Assembly: GCF_963921235.1 (NCBI RefSeq)
Contig: NC_086097.1
Coordinates: 122,700,001 to 122,764,000 of the forward strand
Reading direction: 5' to 3'
Source: Mobula hypostoma
Taxonomy: Eukaryota
DNA: 64,000 bases
Position numbers and translations under genes: made by a program. This document shows, one piece after another, positions 9,595-59,109 of this stretch (positions within the stretch are counted from its first letter, which is position 1; every line of letters begins with the position of its first letter). The notes under the pieces were generated by a model. The model was not told the DNA's origin, searched no databases, and saw nothing but the letters and a program-made list of their open reading frames with translations.

Positions 9595-12500
9595 GGACCA
9601 CTATCCTTGCAGGCAGATTTGCTAGAACTCTTGTGGAAGGTCTAAACTGCTTTGGCAGAGGGATGGAAAACTAAGTGATGGAGCTGAGAATGGGGCAGTT
9701 GGTATACAAACAAATGTAGTGCATAGTGAGACTGTTAGGAAGGACAGGCAGATGATAGGGCAATTTGCATTCAGTGCGATGAGTTGCAGGGTACAGGGAT
9801 AAAATCAAAAAGGGTGACAAATATAGTACTGAGGTGTTATATTGAAATGCATGCAGTATACGGAAATAAGGTAGATGATTTTGTAATGGAGTTAGAGATA
9901 GCAGGTATGACATCGTGGGCATCACTGAGTTGTGGCCGAAAGAAGATTATGTTTGGGAGCTTAACATCCAAGGATACACATTGTATCTGTTACGTACCCC
10001 GTAACTGGGTTGCCAAACCAGCAAAAATGGACCACGCAGTTGGAGTCTGGATTACTAGAACTAAGACAGTTTTATTACAGAAACAAGCAACACAGTACTC
10101 TAATAGTAAAGATACAAATGCAACAGGTTAGCAATGAATAAACACACATGTACACAGATCTAGGATAAACTGGTCAATCAAGCTCTATAGTCGTCTAGGG
10201 GTAAATGACCAGTTTTTAAAGTGACGCAAAGTTCAGTTCAATTTAGTTCAGTTCAGCTCACGGTAATTCCTGCCGTGGGAGAGGGAGAGAGAGAGAGTGC
10301 GAAATGAATATTCAAAACTCGGATTCCCAAACAGACCTTCGATATCGCTCACAAGCAGCTTTCGGGCGAGCCCTTTGTAGTGTCTTCTGAGGTCACTGAC
10401 TGTGACCCCTCCTTCAGATGCGGTCGATCCTCTGCAGTGAACCCGGCACCCAGGCAAGGGCGGACACATACCAGGTTCCCACTGATCATACCTTTCCACC
10501 CTGTGCGTCTAAGGCTTGATCCCGCGATCAGCCGTCCAAAAAGCTTCCCACCGACTTGTGAGAGGCGCACCGCTTCCAGGGTCTCGTTACCTCGGGTGTC
10601 GTGTGTGTCCTGCCTTAGCGAACCTGTCCCTTTTTATCCCCTTGCTGGGGTATCGCCTGTCCATCACACTTCAAACAGTTCAGGGTTCAAAGGGGGAGCC
10701 GATCTTGACAATACCCAGACTGATGGCTCCTTCATTAACATCTCCAAATGCTGCTTCATTGTGTTCCTTATCTCTCCCTCCCCTGAGGACAGATGGCAGA
10801 CTAACTGCTGATGCGACTGGTGCTAGCCCAGGCCAGCAAACATCTTAATTTATGTGTATTCTCGTCACATATCAAAAGGACAGAAAGGTAGGCAGAGGGG
10901 GTGGCATTGCTCTTATGGTAAAAACTGAAATCAAATCCTTAGAAGGAGGTAACATAGGGCCAGAAAATGTAGAATCGTTTGGGTAAAGTTATGGAACTGT
11001 AAGACTGAAAAGACCCTGATGGGAGTTATATACAGGTCTCCGAACCGTAGCCAGAATGTGGGCTTAAAATTTATAACTGGAGATAGAAAATGCATGTCAA
11101 AGGACGATGTTGCAATTGCAAAGGGAGATTTCAATATGCAGGTAGATTGTGAAAATCAGGTTGTTGCTGATTTTGATCCCAAGAGAGAGAATTTGAAGAT
11201 TGCCTACAAGATAGCTCTTTCGAGCAGCTTGTGGTTTAGCCCAATAGGGAATCAGCTATTCTGGATTGAGGGTTCTGTAATGAACCGGATTTGATTAGGG
11301 AGCTTAAGATAAAGGAATCCTTAGGGGGCAGTGATCATAATATGATAGAACTCACCCTGCAATTTGAGAGGGAGAAAGTCAAATGTATCAGTACTACAGT
11401 AAAGGGAATTACAGAAGCATGAGAAAGGAGTTGGACAAAATTGATTGGAAGGGGACACTAGCTGGAACGGTGGCAGAGCAGAAATGGCTGGAGTTTCTGG
11501 GAGTAATTCGGAAAGTGCAGGAAAGATACATGCCAATGAAGAAGTAGTATTCCGAAGACAGGATGACATAACAGTGGGTGACAAGGGAAGTCAAAGGCAA
11601 CATAAAAGTAAAATAGAGGGCATATAATAGAGGAAATATTAGTGGGAAGTTACAGGATTGGGAAGCTTATAAAATCCAGAAGAAGGCAAATAAAAAAATA
11701 CCATAAGGAGGAGAAGGATGAAATATGAAGGTAAGTCAACCAATAATATCAAAGGAGATATGAAAAGTTTTTTCAGACATATACAGAGTAAAAGCGAAGC
11801 AGGAATAGATATTGGACCTCTGGAAAATTACACTGAAGAGATAGTAATGGGGGGCACAGAAACGGCGAATGAACTGAACAAGCATTTTGTATCAGGCTTC
11901 ACCGTGGAAGATACTAGCAGTACACTAGAAGTTTGAGAGTGTCAGGGGGCAGAATTGAGTGTAGTTGCTATTACTAGGGAGATGGCGCTTAGAAACTGAA
12001 AGATCTTGAAGGTAGATAAATCACCGAGACTTGATGGACTACACTCCAGGATTCTTAAAGAGGTGGCTGAAGACATAGTGAAGGTATTAGTAATGATTTT
12101 TCAAGAATCGATAGATTCTGGCATGGTTCCAGAGGACTGGAAAATTTCAAATGTCACTCCATTCTTCAAGAAGTGAGGGAGGCAGATGAAAGGAAATAAT
12201 AGGCCAGTTAGTCTGTACTCTGAGGCTGGGAAGATGTTGGAGTTGATTGTTAAGGATGTGGTTTTGGGGTACTTGGAGGCACATGACAAAATAGGCCAAG
12301 GTCAGCATGGTTTCTTTAAGGAAAAATCTTGCCTAACAAATCTGTTGGAATCCTTTGAAGAGATAACAAGCAGGGTAGTTGTGCACAAGCAGTGAATTTT
12401 GTGTACTTGGATTCTCAGAAGGCCCTTGACAAAGTGCTGTACATGAGGCTGCTAAACAAGATAAGAGCCCAGGGTATTGCAGGAAAGATATTAGCATAGA

Positions 12501-38978: not shown

Positions 38979-40370
38979 ACACTCTGTGGCCAATTTATTA
39001 GGTACCTCCTGTTTCTATGAGTATATGTTCATTGTCTTCTGCTGCTGTAGCTCATCCACTTCAAGGTTCGAATGTATTGTGCATTCAGAGATGATCTTCT
39101 GCACACCACTATTGTAATGTAAGGATATTTGAGTTATTGACCCTTTCCTGTCAGCTTGAACCAGCCTGTCTGTTCTCCTTTGACTGCTTTCATTGACAAG
39201 GCATTTTTGCCCAAAAAACTGCAGCTCAATGGATTTTTTGCTGTTGTTTTTCATGCCATTTTCTGTAGACTCCAAAAACTGTTTGGATTAAAAACCCAGG
39301 AAATCAACTGTTTGGATTAAAAACCCAGGAGATTTTGAGTTTCAGAAATACTCAAACCACCCCGTTGACCATTCACCAACAGAACTAGGTTAGGAAATTC
39401 GCTGCACAACTTGTAATTAATTGAAGCTCACACTTTATTGTCTCTGCACAAACAACAAAGTAACTATGTTGACCCCAGGCCAACAACTTAGAACAGGAAT
39501 TCTACTGTTTCCTCCGTAGCAATACTCACTCAGACCACTTTTCCAATTTACAACACCGAAATAGGGGATCTCCGTTGGCCAGATGAACAATCCTTTCTTC
39601 TATCAGCCCCTGGCATGGAGAGTCTTCCTTGTGATGATGGGTCTCTTGATAGAGTTATCGCTGTCCACTTTTAAATTCATTTCTTACCAATTCAAATATT
39701 TCATTTCAGTGTCATTGACTGTAGGTCATCTGATAGATATTTAACACCTTTTTATTGGCTCTGCTCCAGGCCAGCATCCATTTATTACCCTCTTTCCATC
39801 AAGTGACAATCGGTAATTTATGGCTCTTTGTTCTCTTCAGCAACCAGCTCAACTTGCTCCAGGCAGTCACCAACCCCAATATTCACAAACCTGCTTGTTA
39901 TATTATATCAAAGAACACCTCACAAGTAACTTCTTTGGAAATGATCTCCAGTCCCACAGGTTACCTGAAGCATCATTGTGTCTACTTTAAAACACAGTAA
40001 GTGAAGCAACTTCATCTCACAAAATGGAGGACGTAAAACAGTTCCACAAAATGGCAGCCTGCATCGCCAAACACATGGCAGGAACAGAAACAATTGATCC
40101 GTCTGCTTCCACTGTCCTTGATCCAATTGAGTTTGACATTTTCTTCCATATTTTAAATCCACCATGGTCAACAACCCCATCTGGCACTAACAATCACTCC
40201 ATGGTCAAAGTCACTTATATCACATTTCTGCCCCAATCTGATATTTGGTATGAACAACAATTGAACCTCTTGATTGCCTCTGCATGCTTTCTTGCTGCCA
40301 CATGATTGGCTGATTAGATTGCTCATTAATGAGCAGGAGTACAGGTGTACTGATAAAGTGGCCACTGAAT
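38979..40370 (-). mobile_element. Non-autonomous Tc1-like element with both TIRs, containing an LTR-like insertion
   Basis: tacactctgtggccaatttattaggtac at left and gtactgataaagtggccactgaat at right. The terminal gta is displaced to 45239 by the CR1 insertion. Confidence 0.8.
39364..40173 (-). mobile_element. Solo-LTR-like insertion, ~810 bp
   Basis: Inverted ends GTTGACCAT...ATGGTCAACA. ACCC(C) is duplicated at 39359-39363 and 40174-40178. Removing it restores the Tc1 sequence caaaccaccccatctggcac. AATAAA on minus near 39435. Confidence 0.7.
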
Positions 40371-40466
40371 AGAAACATAGAAACATAGAAAATAGGTGCA
40401 GGAGTAGGCCATTCGGCCCTTCGAGCCTGCACCGCCATTTATTATGATCATGGCTGATCATCCAAC

Positions 40467-43466
40467 TCAGAACCCAGCCTTCCCTCCATACCCCGTGACC
40501 CCTGTAGCCACAAGGGCCATATCTAACTTCCTTTTAAACATAGCTAATGAACTGGCCTCAACAGTTTGCTGTGGCAGAGAATTCCACAGATTCACCACTC
40601 TCTGTGTGAAGAAGTTTTTCCTAACCTCGGTCCTAAAAGGCTTCCCCTCTATCCTCAAACTGTGACCCCTCGTTCTAGACCTCCCCAACATCGGGAACAA
40701 TCTTCCCGCATCTAGCCTGTCCAATCCCTTTAGGATCTTATACGTTTCAATCAGATCCCCCCTCAATCTTCTAAATTCCAACGAGTACAAGCCCAGTTCA
40801 TCCAGTCTTTCTTCATATGAAAGACCTGCCATCCCAGGAATCAATCTGGTGAACCTTCTTTGTACTCCCTCTATGGCAAGGATGTCTTTCCTCAGATTAG
40901 GGGACCAAAACTGCACACAATACTCCAGGTGTGGTCTCACCAAGGCCTTGTACAACTGCAGTAGTACCTCCCTGCTCCTGTACTCGAATCCTCTCGCTAT
41001 AAATGCCAGCATACCGTTCGCCTTTTTCACCGCCTGCTGTACCTGCATGCCCACTTTCAATGACTGGTGTATAATGACACCCAGGTCTCGTTGCACCTCC
41101 CCTTTTCCTAATCGGCCACCATTCAGATAATAATCTGTTTTCCTATTTTTGCCACCAAAGTGGATAACTTCACATTTATCCACATTAAATTGCATCTGCC
41201 ATGAGTTTGCCCACTCACCCAACCTATCCAAGTCACCCTGCATCCTCTTAGCATCCTCCTCACTGCTAACACTGCCACCCAGCTTCGTGTCATCCACAAA
41301 CTTGGAGATGCTGCATTTAATTCCCTCATCCAAGTCATTAATATATATTGTAAACAACTGGGGTCCCAGCACTGAGCCTTGCGGTACCCCACTAGTCACC
41401 GCCTGCCATTCTGAAAAGGTCCCGTTTATTCCCACTCTTTGCTTCCTGTCTGCTAACCAATTCTCCACCCACACCAATACCTTACCCCCAATACCATGTG
41501 CTTTAAGTTTGCACACTAATCTCCTGTGTGGGACCTTGTCAAAAGCCTTTTGAAAATCCAAATATACCACATCCACTGGTTCTCCCCTATCCACTCTACT
41601 AGTTACATCCTCAAAAAATTCTATGAGATTCGTCAGACATGATTTTCCTTTCACAAATCCATGCTGACTTTGTCCGATCATTTCACCGCTTTCCAAATGT
41701 GCTGTTATCACATCCTTGATAACTGACTCCAGCAGTTTCCCCACCACCGACGTTAGGCTAACCGGCCTATAATTCCCCGGTTTCTCTCTCCCTCCTTCTT
41801 TAAAAAGTGGGGTTACATTAGCCACCCTCCAATCCTCAGGAACTAGTCCAGAATCTAACGAGTTTTGAAAAATTATCACTAATGCATCCACTATTTCTTG
41901 GGCCACTTCCTTAAGCACTCTGGGATGCAGACCATCTGGCCCTGGGGATTTATCTGCCTTCAATCCCTTCAATTTACCTAACACCACTTCCCTACTAACA
42001 TGTATTTCGCTCAGTTCCTCCATCTCACTGGACCCTCTGTCCCTTACTATTTCTGGAAGATTATTTATGTCCTCCTTAGTGAAGACAGAACCAAAGTAAT
42101 TATTCAATTGGTCTGCCATGTCCTTGCTCCCCATAATCAATTCACCTGTTTCTGTTTGCAGGGGACCTACATTTGTCTTTATCAGTCTTTTCCTTTTTAC
42201 ATATCTATAAAAGCTTTTACAGTCCGTTTTTATGTTCTCTGCCAGTTTTCTCTCATAATCTTTTTTCCCCTTCCTAATTAAGCCCTTTGTCCTCCTCTGC
42301 TGAACTCTGAATTTCTCCCAGTCCTCAGGTGAGCCACTTTCTCTGGCTAATTTGTATGCTACTTCTTTGGAATTGATACTATCCCTAATTTCTCTTGTCA
42401 GCCACGGGTGCACTACCTTCCTTGATTTATTCTTTTGCCAAACTGGGATGAACAATTGTTGTAGTTCATCCATGCAACCTTTAAATGCCTGCCATTGCAT
42501 ATCCACCGTCAATCCTTGAAGTGTCATTTGCCAGTCTATCTTAGCTAATTCATGTCTCATACCTTCAAAGTTACCCCTCTTTAAGTTCAGAACCTTTGTT
42601 TCTGAATTAACTACGTCACTCTCCATGTTAATGAAGAATTCCACCATATTATGGTCACTCTTACCCAAGGGGCCTCTCACGACAAGATCGCTAATTAACC
42701 CTTCCTCATTGCTCAAAACCCAGTCCAGAATAGCCTGCTCTCTAGTCGGTTCCTCGACATGTTGGTTCAAAAAACCATCCCGCATACATTCCAAGAAATC
42801 CTCTTCCTCAGCACCTTTACCAATTTGGTTCACCCAGTCTACATGTAGATTGAAGTCACCCATTATAACTGCTGTTCCTTTATTGCACACATTTCTAATT
42901 TCCTGTTTAATACCATCTCCGACCTCACTACTACTGTTAGGTGGCCTGTACACAACTCCCAGCAGCGTCTTCTGCCCCTTAGTGTTACGCAGCTCTACCC
43001 ATATCGATTCCACATCTTCCCGGCTTATGTCCTTCCTTTCTATTGCGTTAATCTCTTTTTTAACCAGCAACGCCACCCCACCTCCCCTTCCTTCGTGTCT
43101 ATCCCTCCTGAATATTGAATATCCCTGAACGTTGAGCTCCCATCCCTGGTCACCCTGGAGCCATGTCTCTGTGATCCCAACTATATCATAATCATTAATA
43201 ACAATCTGCACTTTCAATTCATCCACCTTATTACGAATGCTCCTTGCATTGACACATAAAGCCTTCAGGCGCTCTTTTACAACTCTCTTAGCCCTTTTTA
43301 ATGCTTGCCCTGGATTTGTCGGCCTGCCACTTTTACTTTTCCCCTTTGTACTTTTTGCTTCTACGCTCACTTTACACTCCTCTGTCTCTCTGCACTGGTT
43401 CCCATCCCTCTGTTGTGAACTAACCTCCTCACACCTAGCCGCTTTAATTTGATTCCCACCCCCCAA
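40467..43466 (-). CDS. CR1 ORF2p: APE endonuclease plus reverse transcriptase (999 codons open; no AUG before the endonuclease)
   Basis: NARSI, GITETW, YRPP, GDFN, SDH; NYRPVSLT, QHGF, DFQKAFD, VPQGSVLGP, FVDD. Confidence 0.96.
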   Translation of the reverse strand: MGGGNQIKAARCEEVSSQQRDGNQCRETEECKVSVEAKSTKGKSKSGRPTNPGQALKRAKRVVKERLKALCVNARSIRNKVDELKVQIVINDYDIVGITETWLQGDQGWELNVQGYSIFRRDRHEGRGGGVALLVKKEINAIERKDISREDVESIWVELRNTKGQKTLLGVVYRPPNSSSEVGDGIKQEIRNVCNKGTAVIMGDFNLHVDWVNQIGKGAEEEDFLECMRDGFLNQHVEEPTREQAILDWVLSNEEGLISDLVVRGPLGKSDHNMVEFFINMESDVVNSETKVLNLKRGNFEGMRHELAKIDWQMTLQGLTVDMQWQAFKGCMDELQQLFIPVWQKNKSRKVVHPWLTREIRDSINSKEVAYKLARESGSPEDWEKFRVQQRRTKGLIRKGKKDYERKLAENIKTDCKSFYRYVKRKRLIKTNVGPLQTETGELIMGSKDMADQLNNYFGSVFTKEDINNLPEIVRDRGSSEMEELSEIHVSREVVLGKLKGLKADKSPGPDGLHPRVLKEVAQEIVDALVIIFQNSLDSGLVPEDWRVANVTPLFKEGGREKPGNYRPVSLTSVVGKLLESVIKDVITAHLESGEMIGQSQHGFVKGKSCLTNLIEFFEDVTSRVDRGEPVDVVYLDFQKAFDKVPHRRLVCKLKAHGIGGKVLVWVENWLADRKQRVGINGTFSEWQAVTSGVPQGSVLGPQLFTIYINDLDEGIKCSISKFVDDTKLGGSVSSEEDAKRMQGDLDRLGEWANSWQMQFNVDKCEVIHFGGKNRKTDYYLNGGRLGKGEVQRDLGVIIHQSLKVGMQVQQAVKKANGMLAFIARGFEYRSREVLLQLYKALVRPHLEYCVQFWSPNLRKDILAIEGVQRRFTRLIPGMAGLSYEERLDELGLYSLEFRRLRGDLIETYKILKGLDRLDAGRLFPMLGRSRTRGHSLRIEGKPFRTEVRKNFFTQRVVNLWNSLPQQTVEASSLAMFKRKLDMALVATGVTGYGGKAGF

Positions 43467-43471
43467 CCATT

Positions 43472-44407
43472 CTAGTTTAAAGTCACCTCAGTAGCCCCCG
43501 CTAATCTCCCTGCCAGGATATTGGTCCCCCTAGGATTTAAGTGTAACCCATCCTTTTTGTACAGGTCACACCTACGCCAAAAGAGGTCCCAATGATCCAA
43601 AAACTTGAATCCCTGCCCCCTGCTCCAATCCCTCAGCCACGCATTTATCCTCCACCTCATCGCATTCCTACTCTCACTGTCGCGTGGCACAGGCAGTAAT
43701 CCCGAGATTACTACCTTTGCGGTCCTTTTTCTCAACTCCCTTCCTAGCTCCCTATATTCTTCTTTCAGGACCTCATCCCTTTTCCTACCTATGTCATTGG
43801 TACCTATATGTACCAGGACCTCTGGCTCTTCACCCTCCCACTTCAGGATATCTTGGACACGATCAGAAATATCCCGGACCCTGGCACCAGGGAGGCAAAC
43901 TACCATCCGAGTCTCTGGACTGCGTCCACAGAATCGCCTATCTGACCCCCTTACTATCGAGTCCCCTATCACAACTGCCCTCCTCTTCCTTGCCCTACCC
44001 TTCTGAGCTACAGGGCCAGACTCTGTGCCGGAGGCAGGGCCACTGTCGCTTCCCCCGGGTAAGCTGTCCCCCCCAACAGTACTCAAACAGGAGTACCTGT
44101 TGTTAAGGGGCACAGCCGCCGGGGTACTCCTCATCACCTGCCTTTTCCCCTTCCCTCTCCTAACCGTGACCCACTTGTCTGCCTCCCGTGGCCCCGGCGT
44201 GACCACCTGCCTTCCACTCCTCTCTATCACCTCCTCGCTCTCCCTGACCAGACGAAGGTCATCGAGCTGCAGCTCCAGTTCCGTAACGCGGTCCCTTAGG
44301 AGCTGCATCTCGATGCACTTGGCGCAGATGTAGACGTCCGGGAGGCTTGGAGACTCCAGGGCCTCCCACATCCGACACCGAGAACAGCAAACTGCCCTCA
44401 CAGTCAT
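43472..44407 (-). CDS. CR1 ORF1p: zinc-finger/leucine-zipper plus SGNH esterase-like domain (311 aa from first ATG)
   Basis: CCSRC..CAKC, LRDRVTELELQLDDL, VVIGDSIV, CLPGARV, VHIGTND, DGLHLN. Confidence 0.93.
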   Translation of the reverse strand: MTVRAVCCSRCRMWEALESPSLPDVYICAKCIEMQLLRDRVTELELQLDDLRLVRESEEVIERSGRQVVTPGPREADKWVTVRRGKGKRQVMRSTPAAVPLNNRYSCLSTVGGDSLPGGSDSGPASGTESGPVAQKGRARKRRAVVIGDSIVRGSDRRFCGRSPETRMVVCLPGARVRDISDRVQDILKWEGEEPEVLVHIGTNDIGRKRDEVLKEEYRELGRELRKRTAKVVISGLLPVPRDSESRNAMRWRINAWLRDWSRGQGFKFLDHWDLFWRRCDLYKKDGLHLNPRGTNILAGRLAGATEVTLN

Positions 44408-44569
44408 AATGCCCCTCTCCTCAAATAGCAACAGAAAATGAATGTCAAACCTTCCTCGCCTCGCCCGCTTCCGCCTAAGCCCGTTGAGCCGAAGCCCTTA
44501 AGTCTTCACTCTGCTCCCGGCTCACTCCGCCGCCCGCAAACTACGCTGCCCGCTCTATGAGGCTTTGTT

Positions 44570-45238
44570 CCTTTTAAATCTGCCGCGCTGCACTGCCCGA
44601 CGTCACACGCCTGCGCAGTCCCGCCTCTCAGAAAGCCGTTGGAGAAAAAAAAATAACGAAAATTTCAAAAATCTCTTTCTCGGCACTCCCACTCAGACTC
44701 TCAGACTCCTTCTTCGAATCAAATCCGAAGCAGGATGTCTGCCCTTTTAAATCTGCCGCGCTGCACTGCCCGACGTCACACGCCTGCGCAGTCCCGCCTC
44801 TCAGAAAGCCGTTGGAGAAAAAAAAATAACGAAAATTTCAAAAATCTCTTTCTCGGCACTCCCACTCAGACTCTCAGACTCCTTCTTCGAATCAAATCCG
44901 AAGCAGGATGTCTGCCCTTTTAAATCTGCCGCGCTGCACTGCCCGACGTCACACGCCTGCGCAGTCCCGCCTCTCAGAAAGCCGTTGGAGAAAAAAAAAT
45001 AACGAAAATTTCAAAAATCTCTTTCTCGGCACTCCCACTCAGACTCTCAGACTCCTTCTTCGAATCAAATCCGAAGCAGGATGTCTGCCCTTTTAAATCT
45101 GCCGCGCTGCACTGCCCGACGTCACACGCCTGCGCAGTCCCGCCTCTCAGAAAGCCGTTGGAGAAAAAAAAATAACGAAAATTTCAAAAATCTCTTTCTC
45201 GGCACTCCCACTCAGACTCTCAGACTCCTTCTTCGAAT
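44570..45238 (-). repeat. 173-bp tandem monomers (~3.9 identical copies) forming the CR1 5' end
   Basis: CCTTTTAAATCTGCCGCG recurs at 44570, 44743, 44916 and 45089. Confidence 0.97.
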
Positions 45239-45276
45239 GTAAGTAGTGTAGCAGAATCAAAAATCAGAAGTGTGTG

Positions 45277-57069: not shown

Positions 57070-59109
57070 CATAGAAACATAGAAACATAGAAAATAGGTG
57101 CAGGAGTAGGCCATTCGGCCCTTCGAGCCTGCACCGCCATTTATTATGATCATGGCTGATCATCCAACTCAGAACCCCGCCCCAGCCTTCTCTCCATACC
57201 CCCTGATCCCTGTAGCCACAAGGGCCATATCTAACTCCCTCTTAAATATAGCCAATGAACTGGCCTCAACTGTTTCCTGTGGCAGAGAATTCCACAGATT
57301 CAACACTTTCTGTGTGAAGAAGTTTTTCCTAATCTCGGTCCTAAAAGGCTTCCCCTTTATCCTCAAACTGTGACCCCTTGTTCTGGACTTCCCCAACATC
57401 GGGAACAATCTTCCTGCATCTAGCCTGTCCAATCCCTTTAGGATTTTATACGTTTCAATCAGCTCCCCCCTCAATCTTCTAAATTCCAACGAGTACAAGC
57501 CCAGTTCATCCAGTCTTTCTTCATATGAAAGTCCTGCCATCCCAGGAATCAATCTGGTGAACCTTCTTTGTACTCCCTCTATGGCAAGGATGTCTTTCCT
57601 CAGATTAGGGGACCAAAACTGCACACAATACTCCAGGTGTGGTCTCAGCAAGGCCTTGTACAACTGCAGTAGTACCTCCCTGCTCCTGTACTCGAATCCT
57701 CTCGCTATAAATGCCAGCATACCATTCGCCTTTTTCACCGCCTGCTGTACCTGCATGCCCACTTTCAATGACTGGTGTATAATGACACCCAGGTCTCGTT
57801 GCACCTCCTCTTTTCCTAATCGGCCACCATTCAGATAATAATCTGTTTTCCTATTTTTGCCATCAAAGTGGATAACTTCACATTTATCCACATTAAATTG
57901 CATCTGCCATGAATTTGCCCACTCACCCAACCTATCCAAGTCAGTCTGCATCCTCTTAGCATCCTCCGCACAGCTAACACTGCCACCCAGCTTCGTGTCA
58001 TCCGCAAACTTGGAGATGCTGCATTTAATTCCCTCATCCAAGTCATTAATATATATTGTAAACAACTGGGGTCCCAGCACTGAGCCTTGCGGTACCCCAC
58101 TAGTCACTGCCTGCCATTCTGAAAAGGTCCCGTTTATTCCCACTCTTTGCTTCCTGTCTGCCAACCAATTCTCCATCCACATCAATACCTTACCCCCAAT
58201 ACCATGTGCTTTTAGTTTGCACACTAATTTCCTGTGAGGGACCTTGTCAAAAGCCTTTTGAAAATCCAAATATACCACATCCACTGGTTCTCCCCTATCC
58301 ACTCTACTAGTTACATCCTCAGAAAATTCTATGAGATTCGTCAGACATGATTTTCCTTTCACAAATCCATGCTGACTTTGTCCAATGATTTCACCGCTTT
58401 CCAAATGTGCTGTTATCACATCTTTGATAACTGACTCCAGCAGTTTCCCCACCACCGACGTTAGGCTAACCGGTCTATAATTCTCCGGTTTCTCTCTCCC
58501 TCCTTTTTTAAAAAGTGGGGTTACATTAGCCACCCTCCAATCCTCAGGAACTAGTCCAGAATCTAACGAGTTTTGAAAAATTATCACTAATGCATCCACT
58601 ATTTCTTGGGCTACTTCCTTAAGCACTCTAGGATGTAGACCATCTGGCCCTGGGGATTTATCTGCCTTCAATCCCTTCAATTTACCTAACACCACTTCCC
58701 TACTAACATGTATTTCGCTCAGTTCCTCCATCTCACTGGACCCTCTGTGCCCTACTATTTCTGGAAGATTATTTATGTCTTCCTTAGTGAAGACAGAACC
58801 AAAGTAATTATTCAATTGGTCTGCCATGTCCTTGCTCCCCATAATCAATTCACCTGTTTCTGTCTGCAGGGGACATACATTTGTCTTTACCAGTCTTTTC
58901 CTTTTTACATATCTATAAAAGCTTTTACAGTCTGTTTTTATGTTCCCCGCCAGTTTTCTCTCATAATCTTTTTTCCCCTTCCTAATTAAGCCCTTTGTCC
59001 TCCTCTGCTGAACTCTGAATTTCTCCCAGTCCTCAGGTGAGCCACTTTCTCTGGCTAATTCGTATGCTTCTTCTTTGGAATTGATACTATCCTTAATTTC
59101 TCTTGTCAG
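57070..59109 (-). mobile_element. 5'-truncated CR1, same young subfamily as 40369-45238; RT frame open (57169..58848)
   Basis: Nearly identical to 40369-42401; FADD motif; (TTTCTATG)n tail. Confidence 0.96.

Follow-up and report, generated by a model that had tools for sequence, protein, structure and literature searches.

A slippery heptamer followed by a stop codon is conserved at the ORF1-ORF2 junction of esterase-bearing CR1 elements and probably directs −1 ribosomal frameshifting

How the second open reading frame (ORF2) of long interspersed nuclear elements (LINEs) is translated has been called an open and important question, for which reinitiation, internal ribosome entry sites and 2A peptides have been listed (PMC3894237). 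The two described routes to LINE ORF2 are the UAAUG stop-start of SART1 (PMC3708506) and, for L1, an ORF2 start thought to be independent of AUG (PMC5009743). A −1 frameshift is said to be needed by the Dictyostelium elements TRE5-A and TRE3-A (PMC5911963), and pol lies in the −1 frame in 28 of 51 animal long terminal repeat (LTR) elements (PMC5009743). Here we describe a 64,000-nucleotide stretch of Mobula hypostoma DNA, referred to as the window (contig NC_086097.1, positions 122,700,001 to 122,764,000), which carries on its minus strand an intact 4.9-kb LINE consisting of a 5′ untranslated region (UTR), ORF1, ORF2, a 3′ hairpin and a repeat tail. On the basis of its domains, its tail and its similarity to bird and reptile records we class it as an esterase-type LINE of the CR1 group. 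An initial annotation had suggested that its ORF2 is expressed by −1 frameshifting. Judged from comparison of related sequences, the ORF1-ORF2 junction is a real and deeply conserved recoding signal, and its U_UUA_AAC-stop probably (at a rough probability of 0.8) works as a programmed −1 ribosomal frameshift site giving a 1313-residue ORF1-ORF2 fusion.

UUUAAAC is the frameshift site of coronaviruses, and in retroviral and LTR-element gag-pol and in nidovirus ORF1a/1b an X_XXY_YYZ heptamer likewise ends a structural-type ORF and leads into the polymerase. The CR1 element differs from them in being a non-LTR element with no protease, in having no pseudoknot or stem-loop at 5–9 nucleotides (nt), and in the position of its stop codon directly after the heptamer. 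TRE5-A and TRE3-A are, like CR1, APE-type non-LTR elements, but they belong to another clade and kingdom, have no esterase ORF1, and end in a poly(A) tail; as described in that paper, they would furnish a LINE precedent for −1 frameshifting. Esterase-bearing CR1-clade LINEs of the ZfL2-1 type combine the same SGNH esterase ORF1 and APE-reverse transcriptase (RT) ORF2 as seen here, and an SGNH esterase in ORF1 occurs among CR1, RTEX and Penelope-like elements (PMC3905857). HeT-A, TART and mammalian LINEs are mentioned in a 2016 review of frameshifting, whose available text gave no match to CR1 (PMC5009743); in the parts available, the word frameshift is absent from the main texts of PMC3708506 and PMC3905857, and is used only for retroviruses in PMC11835228 and only for DIRS-1 in PMC5006619. 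Our literature search returned no report linking CR1 to frameshifting, most subscription papers being outside its reach, so that an earlier remark is possible.

The features of the locus are collected in Table 1. ORF1, whose start codon has a good context with A at −3, ends in ACT TTA AAC TAG (protein ...EVTLN*), and the −1 frame across the same letters reads TTT AAA CTA GAA TGG. The initial annotation had given the position and X_XXY_YYZ phase of the heptamer, the closure of the −1 frame by TGA, an overlap of about 16 nt, a TTG start for ORF2 with its first AUG some 200 codons in, and a G-rich tract beginning 6 nt past the heptamer; all of these agreed with the sequence, the overlap being 16 nt and ORF2 comprising 999 codons when counted from TTG (codon 8). 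Initiation of ORF2 at an AUG is impossible here because its frame is closed two codons upstream of the heptamer and its first AUG lies within the endonuclease, past residues N80, E107 and Y180, all three of them invariant when 21 ORF2 proteins were aligned (21 of 21). From the ORF1 stop up to that codon there are 13 AUGs out of frame. TTTAAAC occurs eight times in 128 kb (both strands of the window) and TTTAAACTAG once. No second canonical in-phase heptamer was present among the 308 + 1004 = 1312 codons scanned in the element; 2000 synonymous shuffles gave an expectation of 4.2, with none in 1.25% of them (P(0) = 0.0125). None of the variants listed from four runs of contigs fell within 43446–43484, while the flanks vary, a hint at most. 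The TCTAAAC that the initial annotation had noted in an older CR1 copy is indeed there, but heptamer, stop and G run have decayed in that copy and it carries no evidential weight. The endonuclease region of this older copy is split by an insertion of ~870 bp at 9990–10860.

Table 1. Features of the CR1 element and of related copies, in positions of the window
Feature	Position	Strand	Remarks
Slippery heptamer T_TTA_AAC	43475..43481	minus	X_XXY_YYZ phase; final two ORF1 codons; plus letters GTTTAAA
ORF1 stop TAG	43472..43474	minus	Immediately 3′ of heptamer
TGA closing the ORF2 (−1) frame	43488..43490	minus	Two codons upstream of heptamer; plus letters TCA
G run	43459..43464	minus	+11 to +16 past heptamer; candidate 3′ stimulator
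Nearest AUG past the ORF1 stop	43468..43470	minus	One base after stop; out of ORF2 frame, opens 8 codons
First in-frame ORF2 ATG	42861..42863	minus	Codon 209, in IMGDFN
ORF1	43472..44407	minus	311 aa (311 codons); N-terminal Cys motif, coiled-coil-like stretch, SGNH esterase
SGNH/GDSL esterase domain	43526..43972	minus	ORF1 residues 146–294; PF13472, E 2.9e-16
ORF2 frame	40467..43487	minus	1006 codons from one stop to the next; APE endonuclease (PF03372, PF14529), then reverse transcriptase (PF00078)
Linker heading ORF2 frame	43260..43475	minus	Upstream of endonuclease motif I; unconserved
5′ UTR	44408..45243	minus	836 nt, without any ATG
3′ UTR two-tier hairpin	40395..40433	minus	
Terminal tail of 8-nt repeats	40370..40394	minus	
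Second copy, same family	57072..59109	minus	5′-truncated, 96.8% identical, without junction
Decayed junction of older CR1 fragment	9641..9647	plus	End of short ORF1 remnant; TCTAAAC, TGC in place of stop, without G5

Conservation of the heptamer was assessed in two sets of DNA loci. The first, comprising 40 loci, was obtained by a metagenome scan for an ORF1 motif remote from the junction; the ORF1 end was matched in 20, three of which were cut before the junction, leaving 17 that cover it. Fifteen of these carried TTTAAAC, 12 exactly at the place predicted by protein alignment and 3 shifted by indels, and the other two carried TTTAAAT and TTTAAAA; the heptamer recurred even in relatives with an ORF1 only ~35% identical. 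The second, independent set was selected by RT motifs from eukaryotic sequence present in prokaryote assemblies, 80 of 305 being retained, and 38 of its loci contained the endonuclease start. In all seven esterase-bearing loci of this set ORF1 ended in a canonical heptamer, six times TTTAAAC followed by TAG (four near-identical copies of one family and two of another) and once TTTTTTA; among the 31 loci without esterase an in-phase heptamer was found in five, and in only one of the 31 was it fed by a long 0-frame ORF. As a control, internal Leu-Asn pairs in 10 elements were inspected, and T_TTA_AAC occurred at 0 and T_TTA_AAT at 4 of 38; given Leu-Asn, the chance of the terminal codon choice calculated from codon frequencies was ~0.012. 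By ORF1 type and tail the loci appear to include a bird-like group plus at least two non-amniote, probably invertebrate, groups.

Some loci showed other arrangements. In the esterase CR1 at L063 (480–520) the heptamer is T_TTT_TTA with the stop one codon later. Two loci without esterase have a slippery sequence ahead of an AUG-poor ORF2, an in-phase T_TTT_TTA fed by a 358-codon ORF in L081 (near 1290) and G_GGT_TTT in L125 (near 1420). Animal LINE DNA contaminates many prokaryote assemblies (L062–L141), and some animal LINE proteins are filed under bacterial names (P0024, P0137). When viral and prokaryote genome collections were scanned with ORF1, no relatives were detected, nor were any in plasmids and phages. 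The junction pattern was met in 21 viral contigs, none of them CR1-related, and these were dropped as chance matches; five viral RT matches had 26–27% identity.

Protein records allowed the ORF1 C-terminus to be followed more widely. From 120 listed of 162 ORF1 relatives we kept 76 having the catalytic DGxH motif and a tail of 20–32 residues, and LN was the C-terminus in 72 of these complete tails, at 29–98% identity; the relatives occur in records bearing the names of rays, sharks, coelacanth, frogs, turtles, squamates and a bird. Another 134 proteins came from a profile search; 76 of them had tails of 20–45 residues, which ended in LN (41), GN (8) or otherwise (27), and overall 140 of 254 relatives had a C-terminal LN. 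In the alignment N311 was invariant and L310 nearly so. The residue preceding the terminal LN took 13 values, yet K, Q, E, M and W, whose codons never end in T, accounted for only 2 of 140; one position further up the same residues made up 51 of 140, two positions up 53 of 140, and in internal xLN triplets 47 of 190. In eight of nine relatives ending in GN the preceding residue was Gln, as G_GGA_AAC would need, an observation from protein records only. Distant esterase ORF1s (P0313, P0330, P0337, P0347 and P0375) have Lys-Asn at the usual end, then variable tails; at the protein level, this is compatible with an A_AAA_AAC site away from the stop.

Every comparative test run, that is nucleotide conservation, phase, the closed frame, the dipeptide switch and the lack of another slippery site, was consistent with the frameshift proposed at the outset, to the extent that sequence comparison speaks to it. 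As at canonical −1 frameshift sites, the heptamer lies in phase inside an overlap, the −1 ORF has no usable start, and synonymous sites are conserved. We propose that ribosomes would begin at the first AUG, translate ORF1 and mostly terminate at UAG to give the 311-residue protein. In a minority, tRNA-Leu and tRNA-Asn would slip in tandem from UUA AAC to UUU AAA, and reading would resume with CUA GAA UGG into ORF2. The product would be a 1313-residue esterase-endonuclease-RT fusion, with ORF2 output kept low, in which the unconserved linker of 40–100 residues would tether the endonuclease to the esterase; in relatives the stretch before endonuclease motif I ranges from 39 to 107 codons.

Two features would likely act together to bring about the pause needed for slippage, the adjacent stop and a run of five G residues (G5) at +11 to +15. 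Sixteen of 20 representative junctions had a stop at +1, spelled variously TAG, TGA or TAA. Of 24 junctions with coverage, 21 had G5 exactly at +11 to +15; positions +12 to +15 were G in all 18 or 19 representatives, and +4 to +10 vary. Because the run spans wobble positions of the −1 frame, it is a signal at the nucleotide level. The initial annotation had attributed stimulation to the stop and/or a G-rich structure; the G5 at fixed distance proved to be conserved, but a structure was unsupported, and its remark that no clear hairpin or pseudoknot was visible agreed with our fold tests.

Several results weigh against frameshifting and against the breadth of its support. The stem-loop or pseudoknot that canonically lies 5–9 nt downstream is absent: folding of the window predicted no local hairpin past the heptamer (z of 0.18 and −0.13), pseudoknots did not exceed shuffled sequence in 9 of 10 elements, and a three-tier quadruplex was absent from 10 of 10. 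An in-frame AUG upstream of the endonuclease in other intact copies, which the initial annotation had named as a refuting observation, was encountered in part: 6 of 24 related junction loci have one at the ORF1 stop or just past it, all six keeping the heptamer, and other lineages lack it. An in-frame ATG lies two bases past the stop in five bird-like loci, and one has a TAATG stop-start. Three of these six have a long open ORF2, and of the 11 loci whose ORF2 is open for 400 codons or more, 5 have an AUG ahead of endonuclease motif I. The counts overstate independence, the sequences being related and representing about four lineages at the DNA level, and a binomial value for the residue before the terminal LN is inflated for that reason; many bird-like loci came from one metagenome, and the junction columns were centered on the heptamer, so its presence in 20 of 20 representatives is partly by construction. 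Lastly, the search for longer ORF1 proteins, a weak one, gave seven matches that were apparently gene-model chimeras or unrelated, and no natural in-frame ORF1-ORF2 fusion.

Further folding results concern how G5 might act. Among nine relatives local folding gave z from −0.60 to 0.80 except in L001, where −2.09 arose from hairpins more than 35 nt away. A conserved quadruplex was rejected (G4Hunter 1.48 here and ~1.0 in three distant loci). In L063, by eye, a local GC-rich hairpin at about +12 takes the place of the G5 run, the only relative with a local hairpin. Two viral systems offer comparisons. The frameshift stimulator of barley yellow dwarf virus is completed by pairing ~4 kb downstream (PMC5009743), and the CR1 element resembles it in that the best partner of its post-slip tract in the window was the 3′ UTR, 3.05 kb away, with none of 24 ORF2 blocks better. 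It differs in having no local bulged stem-loop and in its partner being locked in the 3′ hairpin; with that hairpin folded the pairing gain vanished, 14% of 181 windows being as good. Among relatives the 3′ UTR took first place in L066/L107 and third or fourth place in members of the L070 family, and was a poor partner in L005, L009 and L002, and lineage-matched junction/3′ UTR pairs were no better than mismatched ones, ranking 17 of 24 by duplex and 12 of 24 by cofold. Long-range pairing to the 3′ UTR is unsupported by these comparisons but still conceivable. For the single family L066/L107, folding predicts that the 3′ hairpin is opened by the post-slip tract, with formation of a duplex of at least 15 pairs, many of them G-U. 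[quoted passage not shown] The CR1 G5, starting at +11, is likewise a short unstructured motif at ~10–13 nt, a likeness in spacing only and to be taken as a lead; the CR1 motif is G-rich, whereas that of PRRSV is CCCANCUCC. We judge a protein-binding or unpaired stimulator to be the likelier role for G5, at slightly less than even odds; an arm of long-range pairing is rather unlikely, and a quadruplex still more so.

Among other explanations, termination followed by reinitiation survives best, but we consider it unlikely for this element. Ribosomes would restart in the −1 frame near UAG, using an AUG where one exists and otherwise a non-AUG codon, which in this element would be TTG (codon 8), with the G run holding the 40S subunit, and would make a separate ORF2 protein. 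The six AUG-at-stop loci, the retention of the stop at +1, and the SART1 and L1 routes described above all speak for it, and reinitiation may possibly operate in some lineages. In this element, unlike SART1 and L1, there is no in-frame AUG near the stop, the nearest AUG being out of frame, and the constraint falls on the heptamer upstream of the stop. At the AUG position other lineages have TGG, TCG, GTG or GGG, and 21 predicted stork proteins read FKL-D-S/L-K without Met (FKL is found upstream in 24 of 97 motif-bearing proteins). Reinitiation also leaves unexplained the fixation of silent positions before the stop, the switch from LN to QGN, and the absence of slippery sites elsewhere. A very unlikely variant combines both routes, with frameshifting ancestral and reinitiation added or substituted in lineages with an AUG beside the stop; it is favored by the six bird-like loci concerned (AUG at codon 3–4), all of which retain heptamer and G5, but the AUG position varies between close relatives, and the argument bears on those relatives rather than on this element.

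Access to ORF2 at the RNA level, through a splice acceptor at TAG or polymerase slippage on T3A3, appears most improbable. TAG is a YAG, and the predicted stork gene models often join exons near the junction, but the AG is not conserved (TGA and TAA occur), upstream pyrimidines number only 6 of 14, runs of three are short for polymerase slippage, and four runs of contigs, of which none is known to be RNA, showed no recurrent joint or indel there. Equally improbable is a motif slippery in looks only, kept for a C-terminal Leu-Asn or as an RNA or DNA element unrelated to translation, a notion that the near-invariance of the dipeptide favors but that is contradicted by the fixed silent positions, by a preceding residue filtered by codon ending and not chemistry, and by Gly replacing Leu exactly where Gln precedes, and that leaves ORF2 without any way to start.

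[quoted passage not shown] In two of them the stop is in TGA CAA, which we take to resemble known readthrough contexts.

The element has other features of its family. A 3′ hairpin and a short tandem-repeat tail replacing poly(A), both present here, are presumably a trait of the CR1 group. Two-tier 3′ hairpins of the same shape with other stem sequences were seen in L070 (6368–6447), L107 (6310–6395), L005 (3438–3520) and L009 (3705–3772), and non-amniote loci have an additional second hairpin ahead of the tail. A search of Rfam gave two weak matches far below gathering scores and none at the junction. The closest named protein among the matches listed was a Mobula hypostoma gene model at 98%. 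Because the second copy in the window is 96.8% identical, the family is taken to be young. Its 5′ UTR contains, at 44570–45238, about four head-to-tail units of 173 bp, three of them 100% identical, each a CpG-rich stretch with a TTTAAAA motif at its end, so that this CR1 has an arrangement like the monomer promoter arrays of L1.

CR1 accounts for 11.8% of the chicken genome (PMC11835228) and is abundant in the source genome too. What is new here is the G5 run at a fixed +11 to +15 in CR1 junctions. More tentatively, and as a possibility we hold short of probable, CR1 elements across animals may have relied on a −1 frameshift of the Gag-Pol kind from a time before vertebrates, stimulated by the stop and by G5 read by a protein (a host G-run binder or the ORF1 protein) instead of by an RNA fold. 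If frameshifting is correct, the CR1 enzyme would be an ORF1-ORF2 fusion, which would account for the production of the copying enzyme in a major class of animal transposons, and current ORF2 gene models would start at the wrong place. The ORF1:ORF2 ratio would be set by one 25-base element, which engineered CR1 assays would have to retain, and in the fixed G5 there would be a natural stimulator of a new kind. Should G5 indeed be read by a protein, CR1 would be the first cellular transposon with a frameshift activated in trans, and its reverse transcriptase would carry a membrane-binding esterase.

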